Shown here in pieces: positions 5,665 through 46,571 of a stretch of DNA of 51,810 bases (position 1 is the stretch's first letter; the number at the start of each line of letters is the position of its first letter). The stretch is from assembly GCA_021734995.1 (NCBI GenBank), contig JAIPHX010000006.1, positions 1-51,810 on the forward strand, written 5' to 3'. A program made the position numbers and the translations under genes. The stretch comes from Minisyncoccota bacterium. Its GTDB lineage: Bacteria; Patescibacteriota; Minisyncoccia; Phycocordibacterales; UBA9973. The notes under the pieces are model-generated. The model was not told the origin of the DNA, did not search any database, and was given only the letters and a program-made list of their open reading frames with translations.

Positions 5665-5737
5665 GCCGAGATAGCTCAGTTGGTAGAGCGCTCCCCTGAA
5701 GAGGGATAGGTCCCCAGTTCAATTCTGGGTCTCGGCA
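5665..5737 (+). tRNA. trnF: tRNA-Phe (GAA)
   Basis: Acceptor gccgaga/tctcggc, D arm gctcagttggtagagc, anticodon loop ctGAAga, T arm cccag-ttcaatt-ctggg; CCA not encoded. Confidence 0.95.
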
Positions 5738-5771
5738 CATAAATGATTAATAAAACTAATTTTGTTAATTT

Positions 5772-6266
5772 ATGAATAAGAAAGGTTTTACTCTGATAGA
5801 ATTGCTAGTTGTTGTTGCAATTATTGGTGTATTGTCTAGTGTTGTTATTGGATCAGTCAATAAATCAAGAGTAAAAGCAAGAGATACACAACGTTGGAAT
5901 GATATTGTCCAAATACAAAATGCACTAGAACTTTATTATTCTGATTTTGGACATTACCCAAAAAGATTTTGGGCACAGACTACAGGTGTTTCAGGTGGAT
6001 GTCTTGACGGAAATTCACAATGGTGTGATTTACAAAATGATTTAACTCCGTATGGATTAAAAAAAATTAGTGACCCGCAAGGTGTTGGTAATTATGATCA
6101 ATATTATTACAGATCAACTGTTGGAGATAACTATCAAACATATGGTTTTATGCTTCGTTTTGAAGATTCGGCAAATATTGCAAAACAAGCTACAGACGGA
6201 GGATATAGTGCCTCTTATTACGAAGTAGGGCAAAGGCCAAGGTTATTGTATGACAAAATATCCTAA
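5772..6266 (+). CDS. Type IV pilin/pseudopilin; C-terminus probably lost through a frameshift (intact end at 6336)
   Basis: KKGFTLIELLVVVAIIGVL class III signal peptide. The +1 frame from about 6241 reads GYCMTKYPKIPPAVSSWWGSSDSFVCLNDGN* with two Cys. Confidence 0.88.
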   Translation: MNKKGFTLIELLVVVAIIGVLSSVVIGSVNKSRVKARDTQRWNDIVQIQNALELYYSDFGHYPKRFWAQTTGVSGGCLDGNSQWCDLQNDLTPYGLKKISDPQGVGNYDQYYYRSTVGDNYQTYGFMLRFEDSANIAKQATDGGYSASYYEVGQRPRLLYDKIS

Positions 6267-6450
6267 GATCCCTCCTGCTGTTTCTAGTTGGTGGGGTAGT
6301 TCAGATAGTTTTGTTTGTCTCAATGATGGCAATTAATAAATTAGTTTTTAAATTCATTAAAAAATGTACAGATATGTTGTTTTTTCTGTTGCTTTTAATT
6401 ATTTAAAAAAGTAGTATAATTTGTGTATTATAATTTAATTTATATTTTAT

Positions 6451-6717
6451 ATGACAATTGATAAAAATGGTATGGAAAATTTTAAGATACCCAATCAAGT
6501 TGCATAAGATGCTCTTACAGAAAGATTTGATCCTAAAACAAATCTTCCTGAGTCTAGATTAATAGAGCTAGAAGCAGATCTAGAACAAAGAAAAGAACAA
6601 GAATCTGGAAAACCTAATGATAATGGGCATTACTTACAAGAATTAGCAGAAAGAGAAGCAAAAATAAAAGAGATTAGGGAGAGAATAGAAGAAAGTTATA
6701 AAAAAGGTACTAATTAA
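6451..6717 (+). pseudogene. 88-codon coiled-coil-like ORF interrupted by an in-frame TAA
   Basis: MTIDKNGMENFKIPNQVA*DALTERFDPKTNLPESRLIELEADLEQRKEQ...KKGTN*. The stop is at 6505-6507 and the reading continues in the same frame. A TAGTATAAT promoter-like element lies upstream. Confidence 0.6.
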
Positions 6718-6723
6718 TTTTTT

Positions 6724-6751
6724 TTGACATTTTTTTATCTTGTGTTATATT
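6724..6751 (+). promoter_or_regulatory. Sigma70 promoter of attenuator leader
   Basis: TTGACA 6724-6729, 16-nt spacer, extended -10 TG-T-TATATT (6746-6751); ATG follows 6 nt later. Confidence 0.7.
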
Positions 6752-6757
6752 CATATT

Positions 6758-6835
6758 ATGATATTAAAAATTAAAAACATAAATAATGTTCGTCGCACAA
6801 TCTCAAAATTTGAGGTTGTCTTCGAGTGTTTCTAA
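6758..6835 (+). CDS. Putative attenuator leader peptide MILKIKNINNVRRTISKFEVVFECF
   Basis: Leaderless ATG. Tandem Arg codons CGT CGC (6791-6796) sit directly before hairpin segment 1. Confidence 0.6.
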   Translation: MILKIKNINNVRRTISKFEVVFECF

Positions 6836-6891
6836 TTTTTTACTATAATAATTAAACTTTCCAAAACAGCCTCAAAAGAGGTTGTTTTTTT
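6797..6891 (+). promoter_or_regulatory. Four-segment transcription attenuator (1:2, 2:3, 3:4 terminator)
   Basis: seg1 acaatctcaa 6797-6806; seg2 ttgaggttgt 6810-6819; seg3 acagcctcaa 6866-6875; seg4 gaggttgt 6878-6885 followed by a T7 tract. Confidence 0.72.
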
Positions 6892-6926
6892 CTGTGTGAT
6901 ATTTAATAGTTAAAAATAAAAATAAA

Positions 6927-8600
6927 ATGAAAAAATTAAAATTAGTTATAGTTGGGGCAGGTCCTAAAGCTCTTAATATTCTAGCTAAGGCCCAAGCTTT
7001 AAAAAATAATGGTTGGGATGTTCCAGAAATTATTGTATTAGAAAAAAATGAAATTGGAGCAAATTGGTCTGGTAATTATGGTTATACTGATGGAAAAGGA
7101 GTCTTGGGTATTTCTCCTCTCAAAGTTTTTAATTACCCATCTAAATCTATTTTTGGAGAAGCAGTTATTTCTGATATGGATAAATATTCTTTTATAAAAT
7201 ATCTTACTCATACTGAAGGTCTTGAAAAGTGGGTTGATGGAGGAATGGGGTGGATCTTACATAAAGAATTTTCTGATTATCTAAAGTGGATAGGAGGATT
7301 TTTCCCTAAGAATATTTGTTTTGGAGAGGTAGTAAAAGTAAATACAAAAAACAAGCAATGGATTGTGACTTATAAAAATAAAAATAACACAAAAGAGATT
7401 GTGTGTGATGGTCTGGTATTTACTGGTCCAGGAGAAATATCAAATCCTTTTCCTATCAAGCCTGATGGTATAAGAGTGTTTGACGCAAAGAATTGGTGGA
7501 AAGATAAAAAAGATATTAATTTCTATGGAAAATTAGCTTTAATAGGAGGTGGAATTTCAGCAGGATCAATATTTGAATCTATCAGTAAAGATATGCTCAC
7601 TTTAGACTGGTATTCGAGGAGAGGATTGTTTACAAGAAGTGAAAATTTTGCTAACAATCAAAGATTCTCTGTCCCTGATTTGTGGCAACAGGTTCCTTTT
7701 TCTGTTAGGAAATCGTTTATATCTGCGACAGATAGAGGTTCTTTGGATTCAACAACACACAATTATATGGTAGCCAGTAGTCATTCTTTCAAGGAAATAA
7801 TTTGCGAGATAAATAAGGTAGAGATAATTGATAAAAAAATTAAAATCTCTTTTAAAGATGGTTTAAATTATAAAGAAAGGATTTATGACCAAATAATTTT
7901 GTGTACTGGTTTTGATAATATGGGTTTTTTAAATCTTTTTGCTGAAAACATAAAAAAAGAACTAAAAGAAAATATTGAAGAAAAAATTGAACCTGATTTA
8001 TCCGTGCTTGGATTAATTCCAAAATTATATTTACCAATGCTTTCTTATTTAAACGTTGGTATAGGATGTGCAACATTAGGTAGCCCATCAATTATGTCAG
8101 ATAGAGTATTGTCTTCTTTGGTTTCCAAGAAATCTAATTGTGAGAAAAATAAAAATGTAAAAGTATTCAAAGGAAGTTTGAAAGGAGATTATTTGATAGC
8201 ACAAAAAACTTTTTCCGCTGGAGAAATTTTAGTAAATGGGTATGCAACAAAAATCAGTACGCAAAGGACTACCACTTCTGTGCAAATAGGTATTGATTTA
8301 CACATGGAACCTTCTTTCTTTTTTGTAAAAGCAAATCATAGTTGTAATCCAAATTGTGGTATAAAATTAAATAATTCTGGTGGTTATTCTTTAGTAGCAA
8401 TGAAGGAAATAAAAAAAGGAGAAGAAATTACTTGGGATTATGCAATGTCAGAATGGGAGTCTATCGCGCTTGAAAATACGAATTGCAAGTGTGGTAGTTC
8501 TATTTGTAGAGGTGCTGTTGGTGGATATAAAGATTTATCACTAAAAATAAAACAAAAATACATTGGTTTCACTGCTCCATATCTAAAATATTTGGAATAA
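6927..8600 (+). CDS. Fusion: MbtG-like (SidA/IucD/PvdA family) flavin-dependent lysine N6-monooxygenase + SET/post-SET methyltransferase
   Basis: N-terminal VIVGAGPKA FAD motif, GANW..GYTDG...SP, IGGG NADPH motif, FTR, TDRG and PKLYLP..SDRVL all match my recollection of mycobacterial MbtG. The C-terminus has NHSCNPN, EEITWDY and CKCGSSICRG, the SET/post-SET signatures. Confidence 0.85.
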   Translation: MKKLKLVIVGAGPKALNILAKAQALKNNGWDVPEIIVLEKNEIGANWSGNYGYTDGKGVLGISPLKVFNYPSKSIFGEAVISDMDKYSFIKYLTHTEGLEKWVDGGMGWILHKEFSDYLKWIGGFFPKNICFGEVVKVNTKNKQWIVTYKNKNNTKEIVCDGLVFTGPGEISNPFPIKPDGIRVFDAKNWWKDKKDINFYGKLALIGGGISAGSIFESISKDMLTLDWYSRRGLFTRSENFANNQRFSVPDLWQQVPFSVRKSFISATDRGSLDSTTHNYMVASSHSFKEIICEINKVEIIDKKIKISFKDGLNYKERIYDQIILCTGFDNMGFLNLFAENIKKELKENIEEKIEPDLSVLGLIPKLYLPMLSYLNVGIGCATLGSPSIMSDRVLSSLVSKKSNCEKNKNVKVFKGSLKGDYLIAQKTFSAGEILVNGYATKISTQRTTTSVQIGIDLHMEPSFFFVKANHSCNPNCGIKLNNSGGYSLVAMKEIKKGEEITWDYAMSEWESIALENTNCKCGSSICRGAVGGYKDLSLKIKQKYIGFTAPYLKYLE

Positions 8601-8628
8601 AAAAAGAGGGGAGTGAACCCTCTTTTTT
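8599..8628. terminator. Bidirectional intrinsic terminator
   Basis: aaaaaaagaggg-gagtgaa-ccctctttttt between convergent genes. Confidence 0.8.
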
Positions 8629-43000: not shown

Positions 43001-43765
43001 TTAATATTCTCTAAACCAAGGTACAGCAGTGACATCTCGTTTTGTCGTGTATAGATAAAGAGTAGGCATATCAGGTAAAAAAGCGTGAGCAGTTGCATCA
43101 GTAAAACTAAAAAGAATTGAGCCGGCAAAGGTTTTTTTTATAAACAAAGCTTCGGTTTTCCTCATTATGTAGTAAACTTTTGCTCCTAAAACTTTATCAC
43201 TACCTTGGAAATGTTTTGTGGCCTGTTTCAGTAATTTTTCTTTTAAAACAGAATCACTCAAATCAAACGAATCAACTTGATTTAAAATAGTTTCTGTCGA
43301 TAACCCCCATTCTTTCCAAAGGTCACTGAGAAGAATTGTCTTTATGCCCACGTTTTCTAGATTTCTCTTAACCAAAGACAGGTATGTTTCAATCTTTTCT
43401 TTTTTATATCTATTCATAAGTGCATGCATATCGGAAAGTATGAATGTAAAAGAAACAACCCCTAAAAGATCTTCTTGGAAGCGAAGCATATTTTTTATTA
43501 GTTGTTCCTCACTATATTCAAATATTTCTTTCTCAGAAGCACCCCAAAACCCCACAAGATTGGTCTTCTTGTTATTTATTATATTATCCTTAACTATCTT
43601 TAACATTCCATGGGAATCATACGGATAATCTCGAGAATATTTTTTTGAGGTCAAGATTTTTAACATCTCTTCTCCTTTTTTTAAGCCGATTTTTTTAATT
43701 AAATCTTCCCCAGAGTTATCTTGATTTTTGATATCATTTAAAATTTTGTTAAAATTGTCATCCAT
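43001..43765 (-). CDS. Hypothetical protein, possible truncated class Ic aaRS-like Rossmann fold
   Basis: LVGFWGAS and FTFILSDMHALMN resemble TyrRS/TrpRS strands; no HIGH or KMSKS motif; ends in PWF. Confidence 0.55.
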   Translation of the reverse strand: MDDNFNKILNDIKNQDNSGEDLIKKIGLKKGEEMLKILTSKKYSRDYPYDSHGMLKIVKDNIINNKKTNLVGFWGASEKEIFEYSEEQLIKNMLRFQEDLLGVVSFTFILSDMHALMNRYKKEKIETYLSLVKRNLENVGIKTILLSDLWKEWGLSTETILNQVDSFDLSDSVLKEKLLKQATKHFQGSDKVLGAKVYYIMRKTEALFIKKTFAGSILFSFTDATAHAFLPDMPTLYLYTTKRDVTAVPWFREY

Positions 43766-43812
43766 GAATATATATTAACATATCTTAGTATATTTTTTAT
43801 CTATAAACTTGT
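43764..43812. repeat. 49-bp direct repeat, copy 2 (promoter of 43001..43765)
   Basis: atgaatatatattaacatatcttagtatattttttatctataaacttgt; overlaps the start codon of the minus-strand gene. Confidence 0.9.
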
Positions 43813-43940
43813 ATTGGATCTCTTGGGTTGCTTTAAGATACATTTATAAAATAAGGCTTAAAAATCTGTGATTCTTCAGCTAATCAAGATTCCTCGTGCC
43901 ACTCCTAGAAGACCTGATTAAACTATGTTATCATTTAAAT

Positions 43941-44936
43941 ATGAAATTGGAAGTAATAAAGGAAGACCCTTTTAATATATTAAGCACTACAAGAGGTGTT
44001 CTAGAAAATGCACAGTATGTGTCTATTGATGAAAACAAGATTAATGATGATATTTCAAATAAAATATCAGAGAGATTTAAAAAGGGGATATATGATGAAT
44101 ATGAATTAGGTATTAATCTAACTGATAAATTAGAAGATAATTTACAAATAATTTTTATTGAAAATTCAGTTAATTTTTGTTTTTGGCCAACTAAAGGAGA
44201 ACCCAAATGGGAAGTTGAATGGCCGATTGGAGGAAAGATTTTTGGGGGATGGTTTGGTCTGGTAAACTGTTTTAAAAGAGCGATGGAAGAAAACATTCCA
44301 ATTTTAGATCCAAAATATTTAAGCAGTATTACATTAGAAGACGCTCGTAAAATCTTTCGAGGTAAAAATAATATAGATATACCTTTACTTGAAAAACGAG
44401 TAGAAAATTTAAGAGAAGTGGGAAATATTTTACAAGAAAAATTTGACGGTAAAATCATTAATTTATTGAAAGAAAGTAATTTTGATGCAATTAAAATAGT
44501 AAAAAGTATTTTAGAAAATTTTCCTTGTTATAAAGACGTTTCAATTTTAGATAATAAGAAAGTTGTCTTTTTGAAACGTGCACAAATTTGTGCCAATGAT
44601 TTTTCTTATGTTTTAAAAAATAGTGAAAATAAAATAACTAGTTTAGATAAATTAACCGCATATGCTGATTACAAATTACCACAATTATTGAGAATGTCTG
44701 GAGTAATTAATTATGAGGAATCTTTGGCAAATAAAATTGATACATTAACAGAATTAGCTCATGATAGTAGAGAAGAAATAGAAATTCGTTCTGCAACAAT
44801 ATGGGCTGTGGAATTACTAAGACAACGCATTGGTATTCTTTCCTCTGGAGAAATTGATAATACAATATGGTTGTTAAGTCAGGGAATTCAAAAGGAATCA
44901 AAACCATATCATCGTTCGAGAACAATTTTTTATTAA
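43941..44936 (+). CDS. Queuosine salvage protein (Q_salvage/DUF2419, QNG1-like glycosylase)
   Basis: NFCFWP..KW, KRAQI, LTAYADYKLPQLLR..GVI.Y, EIEIRSATIWAVE and D..IW. ATG 43941 is preferred. Confidence 0.88.
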   Translation: MKLEVIKEDPFNILSTTRGVLENAQYVSIDENKINDDISNKISERFKKGIYDEYELGINLTDKLEDNLQIIFIENSVNFCFWPTKGEPKWEVEWPIGGKIFGGWFGLVNCFKRAMEENIPILDPKYLSSITLEDARKIFRGKNNIDIPLLEKRVENLREVGNILQEKFDGKIINLLKESNFDAIKIVKSILENFPCYKDVSILDNKKVVFLKRAQICANDFSYVLKNSENKITSLDKLTAYADYKLPQLLRMSGVINYEESLANKIDTLTELAHDSREEIEIRSATIWAVELLRQRIGILSSGEIDNTIWLLSQGIQKESKPYHRSRTIFY

Positions 44937-45084: not shown

Positions 45085-45113
45085 TTGTAACTTAGCAATA
45101 TCTGAATTATAAT
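45085..45113 (+). promoter_or_regulatory. Sigma70 promoter of trp leader
   Basis: TTGTAA 45085-45090, 17-nt spacer, TATAAT 45108-45113; ATG 6 nt later. Confidence 0.8.
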
Positions 45114-45119
45114 AAAAAT

Positions 45120-45179
45120 ATGTTAAGAAAAAGCAATTATATCAATATAGCATGGTGGACAGCTCACATAAGTGGGTAG
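45120..45179 (+). CDS. trpL: trp leader peptide MLRKSNYINIAWWTAHISG
   Basis: Tandem TGG TGG at 45153-45158, upstream of trpB. Confidence 0.88.
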   Translation: MLRKSNYINIAWWTAHISG

Positions 45180-45244
45180 TCTTTGTTGTATTTATAATTA
45201 TTTTTAAGTAATACATGACAACCCACATAATTGTGGGCTTTTTT
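45158..45244 (+). promoter_or_regulatory. trp attenuator
   Basis: seg1 gacagctcac 45158-45167; seg2 gtgggtagtc 45172-45181; seg3 gacaacccac 45217-45226; terminator cccaca-taat-tgtggg followed by T6. Confidence 0.88.
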
Positions 45245-45365
45245 ATTTTCTAATTAAACCTATATGAATAAATTTATTTTTAAACAACATTGTACTGAAT
45301 TCTGGCGTAATTAAGAAACGTTTAGTTTTTACATTACTATTTTAAAAAATAAAAATATAAATTAT

Positions 45366-46571
45366 ATGAAAACAGAAATAAAATCATTAAAAAATTTACC
45401 AGATGAAAATGGGTATTACGGAAAATTTGGAGGAAGTTTTATTCCTCCTCAATTAGTGGAACCATTAAAAGAAATAGAACGAGAATATTTAAAAGCGAAA
45501 AATGATCCAGAATTTCAAAAAGAATATGCTGATTTACTAAAGAATTATGTTGGCCGTCCTTCACCACTTTATTTTGCAAAAAATATAACAGAAAAATTAG
45601 GTGGAGCAAAAGTATATTTAAAACGTGAAGATTTAAACCATACTGGCGCCCATAAAATAAATCACTGTCTAGGGGAAGTACTTCTTGCTAAAAGAATGGG
45701 GAAGAAAAAGGTTTTAGCTGAAACTGGAGCAGGGCAACATGGAGTTGCTTTGGCTACAGCTGCAGCCTTACTTGGTCTTGAGTGTGAAATTCATATGGGT
45801 TCTATTGATATAGAAAAACAACAACCAAATGTTATTCGTATGAAATTACTCGGAGCAAAAGTTGTAGAAGTTAATACAGGGGGTAAATGTCTTAAGGATG
45901 CAGTGGATAGTGCTTTTGCAACATTTATAGAAGAATACAAGACTACATTTTTTGCAATTGGTTCTGTAGTGGGACCTCATCCATATCCGATGATAGTGAG
46001 AGATTTTCAATCTATTGTAGGGAAAGAAGCCAAAAAACAAATATTGGAACAAGAAAAAAGATTACCAGATTATATAATCGGTTGTGTTGGTGGTGGATCA
46101 AATGCGATTGGATTATTTAATGAATTTCTTGATGATGAAGTTAGCCTTATCGGAGTGGAGCCAGCAGGCAGGGGTTCAGGTATTGGTGAACATGCTGCTA
46201 CTATTACATATGGAACAGAGGGTGTAATACATGGTATGAAGACTATTGTATTGCAAGATGAAAAAGGAGAGCCAAATAGTGTTCACTCTATTGCATCAGG
46301 GTTAGATTATCCTGGTGTTGGACCTATTCATGCTTACCTCAAAGCTATTGGAAGAGTCGAATATACTTATGCAAGTGATGATGAAACGATAAAAGCATTT
46401 TTGGAATTATCTAAGGTTGAGGGAATTATTCCAGCTCTTGAAAGTGCTCATGCAGTAGCGTATGCGTTGAAACTAGCTTCAACTCTAAGTAAAGATAAAA
46501 TCATAATAGTTAATCTTTCTGGTCGTGGAGATAAAGATATTGATTATGTAGCTTCATTATTAAAAATATAA
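45366..46571 (+). CDS. trpB: Tryptophan synthase beta chain (stand-alone in window)
   Basis: [10 protein letters not shown] (PLP Lys), [30 protein letters not shown] and NLSGRGDKD. Confidence 0.98.

Follow-up and report, generated by a model that had tools for sequence, protein, structure and literature searches.

The window analyzed here, 51,810 nt in all, comprises positions 1 to 51,810 of contig JAIPHX010000006.1 (assembly GCA_021734995.1), from the Patescibacteria (Paceibacteria/Nomurabacteria-like) genome of a Minisyncoccota bacterium. At 6927..8600 on its forward (+) strand is a gene encoding 557 amino acids, without an internal stop or frameshift, in which two domains follow each other in frame, as an initial annotation of the window had stated. 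A flavin N-hydroxylase domain (residues 1 to ∼403; 6927..8135, +) was assigned from Pfam, PDB sequence matches, alignment, and Foldseek. It is joined via a linker of about 10 residues to a minimal SET plus post-SET methyltransferase domain (residues ∼408 to 557; 8148..8597, +), assigned from Pfam, PDB matches, and alignments; the onset near 8148 agrees with the earlier estimate of about 8155. The flavin monooxygenase and the SET and Cys post-SET motifs reported earlier were borne out. Both Pfam families scored above their cut-offs (Lys_Orn_oxgnase PF13434, 56.5 bits versus 21.3; SET PF00856, 40.3 bits versus 22.4), and the motifs were located, all on the + strand: in the hydroxylase, the FAD motif GAGPKA (residues 10 to 15; 6954-6971), the NADPH motif GGGISAG (residues 207 to 213; 7545-7565), and CTGF (7902-7913); in the SET domain, NHSCNPNC (residues 470 to 477; 8334-8357), EEITWDY (residues 499 to 505; 8421-8441), and the post-SET motif CKCGSSIC (8484-8507). 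As far as the sequence can be read, the cofactor and catalytic motifs checked are intact in both halves. Both domain families canonically target a Lys-type epsilon-amine.

A mis-assembly or a sequencing frameshift could have joined two separate genes, a possibility that has only its prior in its favor. No stop or frameshift was found near 8110-8160, the stretch in which one would have spoken against the fusion; the junction is continuous and is conserved in six other fusions. An AF2 model of the whole protein was confident for both domains (pLDDT 92, pTM 0.91), with a pLDDT of ≥82 at the domain junction. (This model was made from a 97-row alignment; a 10-sequence alignment gave a pLDDT of 55 and was set aside.) The fusion also occurs elsewhere: the same continuous architecture was found in six further proteins, 50 to 65% identical, from independent metagenomes, and the seven proteins, including that of the window, come from at least eight independent datasets. 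An artefactual fusion is thus effectively refuted, and we consider its probability negligible.

Although both halves belong to well-known families, their combination is very rare. Among 1.84 billion representatives, the fusion accounts for a single 50%-identity cluster, and it is absent from about 24 congeners and from 400 genomes of the class; a single-sequence scan of genome contigs also gave no match. The hydroxylase domains of the fusions form one clade (100/99). A search for a split version, with a standalone SET gene beside a hydroxylase gene, lent the pairing no Rosetta-stone support: on long contigs, the two nearest standalone SETs turned out to be orphans. The architecture does not appear to have been characterized already, since our literature search yielded no description combining the two domains and no source that names any of the fusion proteins.

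The gene lies in a strain-specific islet of ∼2.9 kb (5739..8628) that tRNA-Phe (5665-5738) borders on one side and the 3′ end of hsp20 on the other. Besides the cassette made up of a leader and the fusion gene, the islet contains a pilin-like gene and an interrupted small ORF. Four congeners without the islet have orf87, tRNA-Phe, hsp20, prsW, and valS in this order, with ∼45 to 130 nt in the islet's place. Around the islet there was no att-like repeat or insertion footprint, only AT-rich chance repeats. The cassette is closed by a bidirectional intrinsic terminator, AAAAAGAGGG-GAGTGAA-CCCTCTTTTTT (8601..8628), on which hsp20 converges. Of the seven loci read, six have a terminator-like hairpin after the fusion stop codon and one, L005, has none that is evident; in L018, the contig stops short of any T tract downstream of the gene. 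Across the loci, the cassette is found in four or five unrelated neighborhoods. The fusion gene is a horizontally acquired monocistronic cassette with its own promoter, leader, and terminator. The small ORFs downstream of the fusion in its relatives were considered as partners and rejected, because they are not conserved, belong to no family, and have no homologue in the window's genome.

The initial annotation had called the first half an MbtG-like lysine N-hydroxylase. The likeness to NbtG and MbtG stands. Among PDB sequences, the L-Lys monooxygenase NbtG matched residues 6 to 397 with an E value of 5.6e-42, and with the family profile NbtG was by far the best match (1e-76, versus 4e-11 for PvdA, 1e-9 for FbsI, 6e-6 for DfoA, and 2e-5 for KtzI). 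The modeled hydroxylase has the three-domain NMO fold; its best 50 Foldseek matches were all N-hydroxylases, with a TM score of 0.87 to NbtG (4d7e). Neither the FAD nor the NADPH motif varies within the family, the key glycines being kept in 10 of 10 members; the unusual GAGPKA is identical to the motif in NbtG, and the NADPH motif has the same GGGxxAG form. The specificity for lysine, in contrast, is not established. The fusion hydroxylase is only ∼27 to 31% identical to NbtG/MbtG, and in our tree the CPR hydroxylases form a separate long branch (1.38) that is not nested with NbtG, so that the substrate may have changed. Further differences from NbtG and MbtG are the fused SET domain, the control by an Arg attenuator, and the lack of an NRPS or siderophore context.

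The known characterized enzymes of the NbtG/MbtG clade feed hydroxamate siderophore or N-N-bond (hydrazine or azoxy) pathways (PMC7347517), and the remaining genes of such a pathway could have been elsewhere in the genome. The earlier observation that no siderophore synthetase, NRPS, or acyltransferase gene is adjacent holds, and can be extended to the whole 0.79-Mb genome, which is 97% complete: searches for IucA/IucC, the NRPS C domain, and Acetyltransf_8 (PF04183, PF00668, and PF13523) were negative genome-wide, whereas control genomes were positive. Because this genome has no NIS synthetase, NRPS condensation domain, or IucB-type acyltransferase, and because the cassette is monocistronic and mobile, we regard a siderophore or N-N-bond role as very improbable.

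The standalone hydroxylases that are the sister clade to the fusion hydroxylases offer a parallel. In one member, P0008, the hydroxylase gene is followed in a tight array by genes for a formyltransferase and an arginine decarboxylase (ADC)-like enzyme, an arrangement in keeping with the common pairing of a hydroxylase and a C1 or acyl transferase that acts on the hydroxylamine. Hydroxamate systems of the DesA/DesB/DesC type (decarboxylase, N-hydroxylase, and acyl or formyl transferase), along with PvdA/PvdF and CchB/CchA, are built similarly: the hydroxylase works with a partner that adds a one-carbon or acyl cap to the hydroxylamine nitrogen. The fusion differs from these systems in that the putative capping module is a SAM-dependent SET domain in the same chain, no assembling synthetase accompanies it, and the proposed product would be N-methylated, not a metal-chelating hydroxamate.

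To our knowledge, only one SET enzyme, BurB, acts on a small molecule, and we know of no precedent for the methylation of a hydroxylamine by a SET domain. Residues 426 to 545 of the fusion matched SET proteins in the PDB, best of all BurB (1.8e-8) and then ASH1L, KMT2A, and SETD2. The similarity is weak (E values for BurB of about 1e-8 to 1e-11), and in a profile search BurB was barely ahead of ASH1L (9e-12 versus 2.8e-11). BurB, the methionine S-methyltransferase of Burkholderia thailandensis (PDB 9l4t), is likewise a minimal bacterial SET protein of ∼150 to 180 amino acids with the NHSC...DY...CxCx4C core, and it provides the precedent for a SET pocket that methylates a free amino acid, namely, methionine (PMC12542666). 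It differs in methylating sulfur, in being standalone, and in serving a polyketide/DMSP pathway. Since BurB binds Met through main-chain atoms (PMC12542666), conservation of side chains is uninformative, and its specificity cannot be transferred to the fusion.

NHSCNPNC and EEITWDY are invariant in all seven fusions and 96 to 100% conserved in 69 standalone relatives; the catalytic-site Tyr of EEITWDY aligns with Tyr124 of BurB. Also invariant are C473, C520, C522, and C527, which correspond to the Zn cluster formed by the post-SET CxCx4C and the Cys of NHSC. The positions that are highly conserved in standalone SETs are all kept, namely, G420, E433, G438, Q453, NHSCxPNCG, E500/T502/D504/Y505, C520/C522/C527, and R528. 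In the GxG-type SAM motif, however, only G420 is kept; the second Gly is replaced in the fusion clade (KGD[S/Y]L), where D421 and S/Y422 stand in for the K/R and G of the standalone relatives. The catalytic sites of both halves look intact, but the replaced Gly counts against our main reading. Some 20-odd SET positions are specific to the fusions, and at several of these (T441, H459, K468, A514, D421, R447, E461, and E511) an aromatic or aliphatic residue has become polar or charged. From these alignments, the catalytic core of the SET domain appears to be intact and its substrate pocket remodeled.

The closest standalone SETs, which are common in CPR bacteria and DPANN archaea, have the same length and the same motifs as the fused domain and are 38 to 46% identical to it across its full extent. 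Their genes are orphans, without a hydroxylase gene in the vicinity. Such small prokaryotic SETs are the probable evolutionary source of the fused domain. They are annotated as protein-lysine N-methyltransferases, a point against a small-molecule substrate, and SET domains in general are overwhelmingly enzymes of this kind. The fusion might accordingly act on a lysine side chain of a cellular protein or peptide, which the SET domain would methylate and the hydroxylase oxidize. MbtG, moreover, is reportedly active on acylated lysine in mycobactin intermediates. Its substrate is listed as "lysine or acyl-lysine" (PMC7347517). Yet no partner or target gene is conserved with the cassette, and many pocket positions have changed in the fusion clade, among them those that form the peptide groove and the aromatic channel of the standalone SETs. 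The two halves are tightly packed in the AF2 model, in which the very short linker and the high pTM suggest the hand-over of a small intermediate. We also know of no flavin N-hydroxylase that acts on a folded protein. A protein or peptide substrate thus seems unlikely to us. A host protein, one of the substrates that the initial annotation had put forward, is unsupported because no signal peptide or secretion context was seen.

Upstream of the gene, where an attenuator had already been noted, the device can be described more precisely. A σ70-type promoter (TTGACA, 16 nt, TATATT; 6724..6751, +) matches the consensus at 11 of 12 positions and is TG-extended; an equivalent promoter with the same spacing precedes the leader in the other loci for which upstream sequence was read. 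The leader ORF, MILKIKNINNVRRTISKFEVVFECF followed by a stop codon (6758..6835, +), begins 6 nt past the −10 box and is probably leaderless, judging from that spacing. Codons 12 and 13 are the tandem Arg control codons CGT CGC (6791..6796, +). They are followed by segment 1, ACAATCTCAAA (6797-6807, +), which forms a pause or anti-antiterminator hairpin with segment 2, TTTGAGGTTGT (6809-6819, +); segment 2 can pair alternatively with segment 3. Segments 3 and 4 form the intrinsic terminator, AAAACAGCCTC-AAAA-GAGGTTGTTTT plus a T tract (6863..6895, +). The calculated energies in the window are −11.9 (1:2), −13.9 (2:3), and −14.0 (3:4) kcal/mol; across the loci they range from −12 to −17 for 2:3 and from −10.6 to −19 for 3:4.

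A homologous leader of 25 to 33 codons, with two or three tandem Arg codons (CGN; RR or RRR) at the same place, is present in all seven distinct loci, and nhmmer found exactly one copy per locus, always ahead of the fusion gene. Because MAFFT misaligned the 3′ arms of the leader terminators, the segments were analyzed locus by locus. Double compensatory changes occur at three positions of the 2:3 helix (GC to AT once and TA to CG twice); in L018, the paired segments GAGG/CCTC have become GAGA/TCTC. In masked folds with the ribosome set at the leader stop codon, the 3:4 terminator formed in all seven loci. The folds switched by minimum energy alone in four of the seven. In the other three, the terminator stayed in the minimum-energy fold despite the stalled ribosome, so that a co-transcriptional (kinetic) argument is needed for these. 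From its anatomy and covariation, the device reads as a tandem-Arg-codon leader-peptide attenuator like that of the trp operon.

The amino acid leader families that we know in Rfam are Trp, His, Leu, Thr, and Phe. At both thresholds, Rfam assigned the leader to no known family (Trp_leader scored 18.5 bits versus a gathering score of 41). With trpL, hisL, and leuL it shares the short ORF, the tandem control codons, the 1:2, 2:3, and 3:4 helices, and the intrinsic terminator, but its control codons are for arginine, its ORF is apparently leaderless, and it controls a tailoring enzyme, not the biosynthetic operon of the amino acid that is sensed. Salmonella orf34 (SpeFL) also has consecutive Arg codons at positions 12 and 13, which sense arginine for speF (PMC6386406); here, in contrast, there is no DUF2618 match and no Rho dependence.

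The resemblance to SpeFL suggests another possibility, an arrest peptide of the SpeFL/TnaC type that would sense a metabolite such as ornithine, arginine, or lysine in the exit tunnel instead of the charging of tRNA-Arg. If so, abundance of the substrate would induce the enzyme. Classical attenuators need no selection on the peptide sequence, and here the Q/N-I-N-N that precedes the Arg pair is kept by synonymous third-position changes (ATC/ATA and AAC/AAT) in five of the seven loci, which hints at selection on the leader peptide. The RR at codons 12 and 13 is followed by T, as in HIRRT of SpeFL. However, His10 and His16, which SpeFL requires in its HIRRXXH sensor motif, are absent from the leaders, and the seven leader peptides gave no Pfam match to DUF2618 (PF10940) at E values up to 10. 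Past the Arg codons, the reading frames vary between loci while the RNA segments are conserved. Furthermore, the leader has an intrinsic terminator with the full 1:2/2:3/3:4 geometry and no Rho site, and the identical design with Trp codons serves trpB in the same genome. We therefore consider an arrest peptide not very likely.

At three of the other loci (L001/L022, L002, and L004), the cassette lies one to three small genes upstream of genes for a SpeA-like decarboxylase, a DHS/homospermidine-synthase-like protein, and an agmatinase (220 bits versus a cut-off of 174). These neighbors raise the possibility that the fusion is a polyamine-tailoring enzyme that belongs with this module, with an arginine-derived amine (agmatine, putrescine, or homospermidine), not lysine, as its substrate. 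The array of P0008 contains the same decarboxylase, a SpeA/ADC-like decarboxylase is retained in the window's genome on contig C2, and diamine N-hydroxylases exist (FbsI, DesB, and DfoA). In enterobacteria, polyamine synthesis is under the control of Arg-codon leaders (PMC6386406). On the other side, the three syntenic loci, being from related genomes, do not count as independent; the cassette ends in a terminator of its own; and the intervening small ORFs are unconserved. There is no polyamine gene near the cassette in the window, in L005, or in L046/L021, and tblastn of the window's genome gave no match to the DHS-like or agmatinase proteins. In sequence, the hydroxylase also resembles the lysine enzyme NbtG far more than it does the diamine hydroxylases. 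A polyamine substrate is thus, in our estimation, unlikely. The DHS-like neighbor had also suggested a lysine modification of the EF-P/hypusine type; this was dropped because the window's genome lacks that gene, which is also not cotranscribed with the fusion.

With slightly less than even confidence, we propose that the fusion is a self-sufficient small-molecule enzyme that first N-hydroxylates a terminal amine and then methylates it, and that it is made when charged tRNA-Arg is scarce. That the cassette carries its own terminator and occurs in unrelated neighborhoods supports its self-sufficiency. The steps below, from substrate to product and in this sequence, are inferred, as is any physiological role of the arginine control. 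The hydroxylase half, a class B flavoprotein, would use FAD, NADPH, and O2 to hydroxylate a small basic metabolite at the nitrogen of its terminal primary amine, most likely L-lysine at N6, with ornithine or an Arg-derived diamine or polyamine as alternatives. The SET half would then use SAM to methylate the same nitrogen, or its oxygen, giving an amine of the N-hydroxy-N-methyl or N-methoxy type. With charged tRNA-Arg in short supply, the ribosome would stall at the tandem Arg codons and cover segment 1, so that segments 2 and 3 would form the antiterminator and the enzyme would be made; when arginine is plentiful, the ribosome would reach the leader stop codon, the 3:4 terminator would form, and transcription would end. 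In addition to the points already mentioned, two facts count against this proposal: a lysine-type tailoring enzyme is under arginine control, and no SAM synthetase of either type was found in the window's genome, so that SAM must be imported.

A more specific version of the proposal brings in the arginine control, but we regard it as a long shot. In it, the SET domain is a recruited small-molecule N-methyltransferase that caps the handed-over hydroxylamine, and the product is free N6-hydroxy-N6-methyl-lysine, an arginine look-alike that acts as an antimetabolite or signal. The side chain of this compound would share the heavy-atom length and the Y-shaped end of that of arginine. An arginine-auxotrophic episymbiont would make it only when its own tRNA-Arg ran short, and the compound would perturb the use or regulation of arginine in the host or in competitors. 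If true, the enzyme chemistry and the natural product would both be new, as would the nutrient-acquisition tactic for CPR bacteria, and the attenuator would be the first of the arginine-codon terminator/antiterminator kind to be described.

Should the SET domain methylate a free hydroxylamine or amine at all, it would join BurB as only the second SET enzyme with a small-molecule substrate and would be the first whose target is a nitrogen outside proteins, and the N-hydroxy group would have a new cap, methyl instead of acyl or formyl. Because the cassette is a single 2-kb unit that should need only FAD, NADPH, O2, and SAM, both its chemistry and its regulation are directly testable in E. coli. 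It further lends itself to clean tests of gene regulation in CPR bacteria, which are not culturable alone, as it combines a putatively leaderless Arg-codon leader, a textbook terminator/antiterminator arrangement, covariation, and a Trp-codon twin in the same genome. That twin, a WW-codon leader of the same design, lies within the window and drives a lone trpB.

The open reading frame (ORF) at 6927-8600 on the forward strand encodes 557 amino acids (aa) without interruption. It matches the Pfam families Lys_Orn_oxgnase (56.5 bits; cut-off, 21.3) and SET (40.3 bits; cut-off, 22.4). In a search of PDB sequences, residues 6 to 397 resembled the L-lysine N6-monooxygenase NbtG (4d7e; E = 5.6e-42), and residues 426 to 545 resembled SET proteins, of which BurB, a methionine S-methyltransferase of Burkholderia thailandensis, was the top match (9l4t; 1.8e-8), followed by ASH1L, KMT2A, and SETD2. 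The hydroxylase half has an FAD-site motif, GAGPKA, identical to that of NbtG, and an NADPH-site motif, GGGISAG; all features that define N-hydroxylating monooxygenases and could be tested here are present. The SET half carries, on the same strand, NHSCNPNC (8334-8357), EEITWDY (8421-8441), and the post-SET motif CKCGSSIC (8484-8507), and has four of the five testable SET features, the altered N-terminal GxG motif being the atypical one. The ORF and motifs described in the initial annotation are thus confirmed.

When 5.8 billion protein clusters were searched by word index, six further proteins with both domains (50 to 65% identity) were returned, along with three standalone hydroxylases (43 to 46%). 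At least eight independent datasets contributed copies of the fusion. Among 1.84 billion 50%-identity representatives scanned, it was found as only one cluster and one fragment and is therefore very rare. An assembly artefact is untenable as its source because the same architecture recurs in other proteins. The domain junction is conserved among the fusion proteins, and an AlphaFold2 model built from a 97-row alignment had a mean pLDDT of 92 and a pTM of 0.91, the ∼10-residue linker included, which implies that the two domains would be packed in a fixed arrangement. With the N-terminal 400 residues, Foldseek gave NbtG as the best match (target-normalised TM, 0.87), then PvdA, FbsI, SidA, DesB, and KtzI; it found no solved structure spanning both domains. 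No paper in the literature searched combines the N-hydroxylase and SET enzyme families, and no source gives the fusion proteins a name. The domain architecture is new, a new reaction is probable, and the arginine-type attenuator is itself a new member of its class. The finding is real, it is both rare and undescribed, and testing it would be cheap.

An equivalent 5′ unit precedes the fusion gene in all seven distinct loci, and nhmmer found no further copies elsewhere in the genome or the retrieved loci. In the window, a forward-strand promoter, TTGACA-16-TATATT (6724-6751), is followed 6 nucleotides (nt) past the −10 box by the ATG of a 25-codon leader ORF, MILKIKNINNVRRTISKFEVVFECF (6758-6835), which implies that the leader message would be leaderless. 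Codons 12 and 13 are CGT CGC, and RR or RRR occupies the corresponding position in the remaining loci. Segments 1 (6797-6807) and 2 (6809-6819) and the leader terminator (6863-6895) lie on the same strand. Pairing of segment 2 with the 5′ arm of the terminator is worth −12 to −17 kcal/mol, similar to the terminator's own arms (−10.6 to −19), and double compensatory changes occur at three positions of this pairing; at locus L018, from a relative, GAGG/CCTC in the paired segments is GAGA/TCTC. When each of the seven leaders was folded under an imposed ribosome footprint, a ribosome stalled at the Arg codons made the antiterminator (2:3) the minimum-energy structure in four, and a ribosome at the leader stop codon gave the terminator in all seven; the other three leaders would need a kinetic argument for switching. 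The leader has all the sequence-level features of a ribosome-mediated attenuator. The attenuator initially proposed upstream of the fusion gene is borne out at the sequence level by the tandem-Arg leader, by segments 1 and 2 with the terminator, by recurrence at every locus, and by covariation. No Rfam family was found for it.

The same window holds a twin leaderless attenuator (45109-46571), with TATAAT, an ATG 6 nt on at 45121, the peptide MLRKSNYINIAWWTAHISG ending at a stop codon, WW codons, and a terminator (CCCACA...TGTGGG-T6); inspection of the sequence and family scans confirmed it. Because the gene behind it is a lone trpB (TIGR00263, 583 bits; cut-off, 392), the organism employs such attenuators in the classical sense. 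In Salmonella, the consecutive Arg codons 12 and 13 of orf34 (SpeFL) sense arginine (PMC6386406). The fusion leaders have a comparable Arg run but neither match DUF2618 nor have the His residues that SpeFL requires. This failed family test argues against an arrest peptide of the SpeFL type; that the leader is some metabolite-sensing arrest peptide rather than a pure codon sensor is a rival reading, hinted at by the Q/N-I-N-N ahead of the Arg run, which is kept through synonymous changes.

After the attenuator terminator, ∼15 to 30 nt 5′ of the fusion start, loci L001, L002, L004, L005, L018, and L019 share a conserved GTTCTTTAA(A/C)AAT, with no Shine-Dalgarno sequence visible between terminator and start. 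The motif is only degenerate in the window, and in L046 ∼170 nt are inserted between it and the terminator.

The hydroxylase family profile matched NbtG at 1e-76, compared with 4e-11 for PvdA, 1e-9 for the putrescine hydroxylase FbsI, 6e-6 for DfoA, and 2e-5 for KtzI. In a maximum-likelihood tree, the hydroxylases of CPR (Patescibacteria-type) bacteria form a single clade (100/100), not nested with NbtG, on a long stem of 1.38 substitutions per site, which divides into the seven fusion proteins (100/99) and three standalone enzymes; the monophyly of the former argues for a single fusion event. Other NbtG-like hydroxylases are fused differently: the partner is a C-terminal LPG_synthase_C (aminoacyl-transferase-like) domain in P0091 and an N-terminal DnaA_N domain in P0150, and both P0038 and P0048 end in ∼200 residues without an assigned domain.

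The SET half is 38 to 46% identical to many standalone 150- to 165-aa SET proteins of CPR bacteria and DPANN archaea, annotated at source as protein-lysine methyltransferases. Of those located on long contigs, the two most similar are orphans that lack a neighboring hydroxylase. We compared 7 fusion SET domains with 69 standalone SETs column by column. All highly conserved standalone positions are kept (G420, E433, G438, Q453, NHSCxPNCG, E500/T502/D504/Y505, C520/C522/C527, and R528), and one block of positions is invariant in the fusions only. Among several fusion-specific changes are swaps from aromatic or aliphatic to polar or charged residues (Y→T441, W→H459, Y→K468, W→A514, and K→D421, plus R447, E461, and E511). 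This pattern suggests that the catalytic core is intact and the substrate pocket re-specified. The minimal SET pocket of BurB methylates a free amino acid, which it binds mainly via main-chain hydrogen bonds (PMC12542666). Judged by sequence, the fusion SET domain may be BurB-like or protein-directed. Three proteins of ∼1400 to 1480 aa (P0035, P0037, and P0074) each contain five to seven separate SET-matching stretches and are tandem multi-SET proteins.

The relatives are Patescibacteria, named at source Ca. Nomurabacteria or Paceibacterota. The hydroxylase is absent from ∼24 congeners, some of which have small standalone SET genes only, and from 400 other genomes of the class (282 genera). 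Four congeners have the order orf87, tRNA-Phe, hsp20, prsW, valS, with only ∼45 to 130 nt from tRNA-Phe or orf87 to the hsp20 terminator versus 2.9 kb in the window; thus, 5739-8628 is a strain-specific islet beside tRNA-Phe. It holds a pilin-like gene (5772-6266), an interrupted small ORF, and the cassette of leader and fusion gene; no integrase was found in it and no att-like repeat around it. In the interval from the pilin-like gene to the leader promoter, an 88-codon frame (6451-6717; MTIDKNGMENFKIPNQVA-stop-DALTERFDPKTNLPESRLIELEADLEQRKEQ...KKGTN-stop) has one in-frame TAA at codon 19 and may represent either gene decay or a short gene with a downstream start. In other genomes the surroundings of the cassette are unrelated. 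The cassette lies between DUF3048 and TrmB genes at L005 and between a large secreted protein gene and rplS at L046/L021. In six of the seven loci read, the fusion stop codon runs straight into a terminator-like hairpin, beyond which the small ORFs are not conserved; the cassette is a monocistronic, self-contained unit. At L006 (325-3857), a standalone sister hydroxylase, P0008 (∼46% identical), directly follows dnaJ without an Arg leader, closely packed with genes for a formyltransferase-like protein and a SpeA-like decarboxylase; such an array could be a minimal route to N-formyl-N-hydroxy amines in a CPR bacterium.

The absence of siderophore synthetase, NRPS, or acyltransferase genes next to the fusion, noted initially, extends genome-wide: the 0.79-Mb, 97%-complete genome has no IucA/IucC, NRPS condensation, or IucB-type acyltransferase domains (positive controls matched), which excludes a siderophore role. 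Both catalytic modules are intact by sequence, and both families target a lysine-type terminal amine. From this, the rigid short-linker fusion, the remodelled SET pocket, the lack of partner genes, and the sister lineage with formyltransferase and decarboxylase, we infer a two-step small-molecule enzyme. The terminal amine would be N-hydroxylated, using FAD, NADPH, and O2, and the same nitrogen (or its oxygen) would then undergo SAM-dependent methylation within the SET pocket. The N-hydroxy/N-methyl amine modification proposed initially is partly supported, by the intact modules and the kind of amine that their families act on, and is a candidate reaction. The caveats are the altered GxG motif, the long stem of the hydroxylase clade, and a missing SAM synthetase: neither the bacterial (PF02773) nor the archaeal (PF01941) form is in this 97%-complete genome, and SAM is presumably imported. 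The genome also has neither argininosuccinate synthase nor arginine deiminase, and so the organism probably has to import its arginine.

The leading candidate for the substrate is lysine N6, since NbtG is by far the nearest characterized relative and since SET channels are shaped to take a lysine side chain. The arginine control and the partial synteny with polyamine genes make ornithine or an Arg-derived polyamine real alternatives. At L001/L022, L002, and L004, the cassette follows dnaK-dnaJ and precedes genes for a SpeA-like decarboxylase, a DHS/homospermidine-synthase-like protein, and agmatinase. The enzyme would be made under shortage of charged tRNA-Arg; speculatively, this control may serve production of an arginine-shaped lysine derivative, or may parallel the low-arginine induction of speF in polyamine economy.

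The Paceibacteria module of short SpeA-like decarboxylase, DHS-like gene, and agmatinase is conserved at L001 (12419-19759), L002 (10846-15785), and L004 (4788-9988). In the window's genome, a SpeA-like decarboxylase on contig C2 (51430-52809) is flanked by an ORF resembling tgt (by eye) and a ribonucleotide-reductase-like gene and is thus unlinked to any polyamine partner; a 420-aa ORF without an assigned family (43350-44612) lies ∼7 kb upstream. The best NCBIfam matches of the DHS-like gene are homospermidine biosynthesis protein, deoxyhypusine synthase, and 1,9-bis(guanidino)-5-aza-nonane synthase, and the module probably leads from arginine to homospermidine. Its DHS-like protein is abundant, with 183 members in its 90% cluster.
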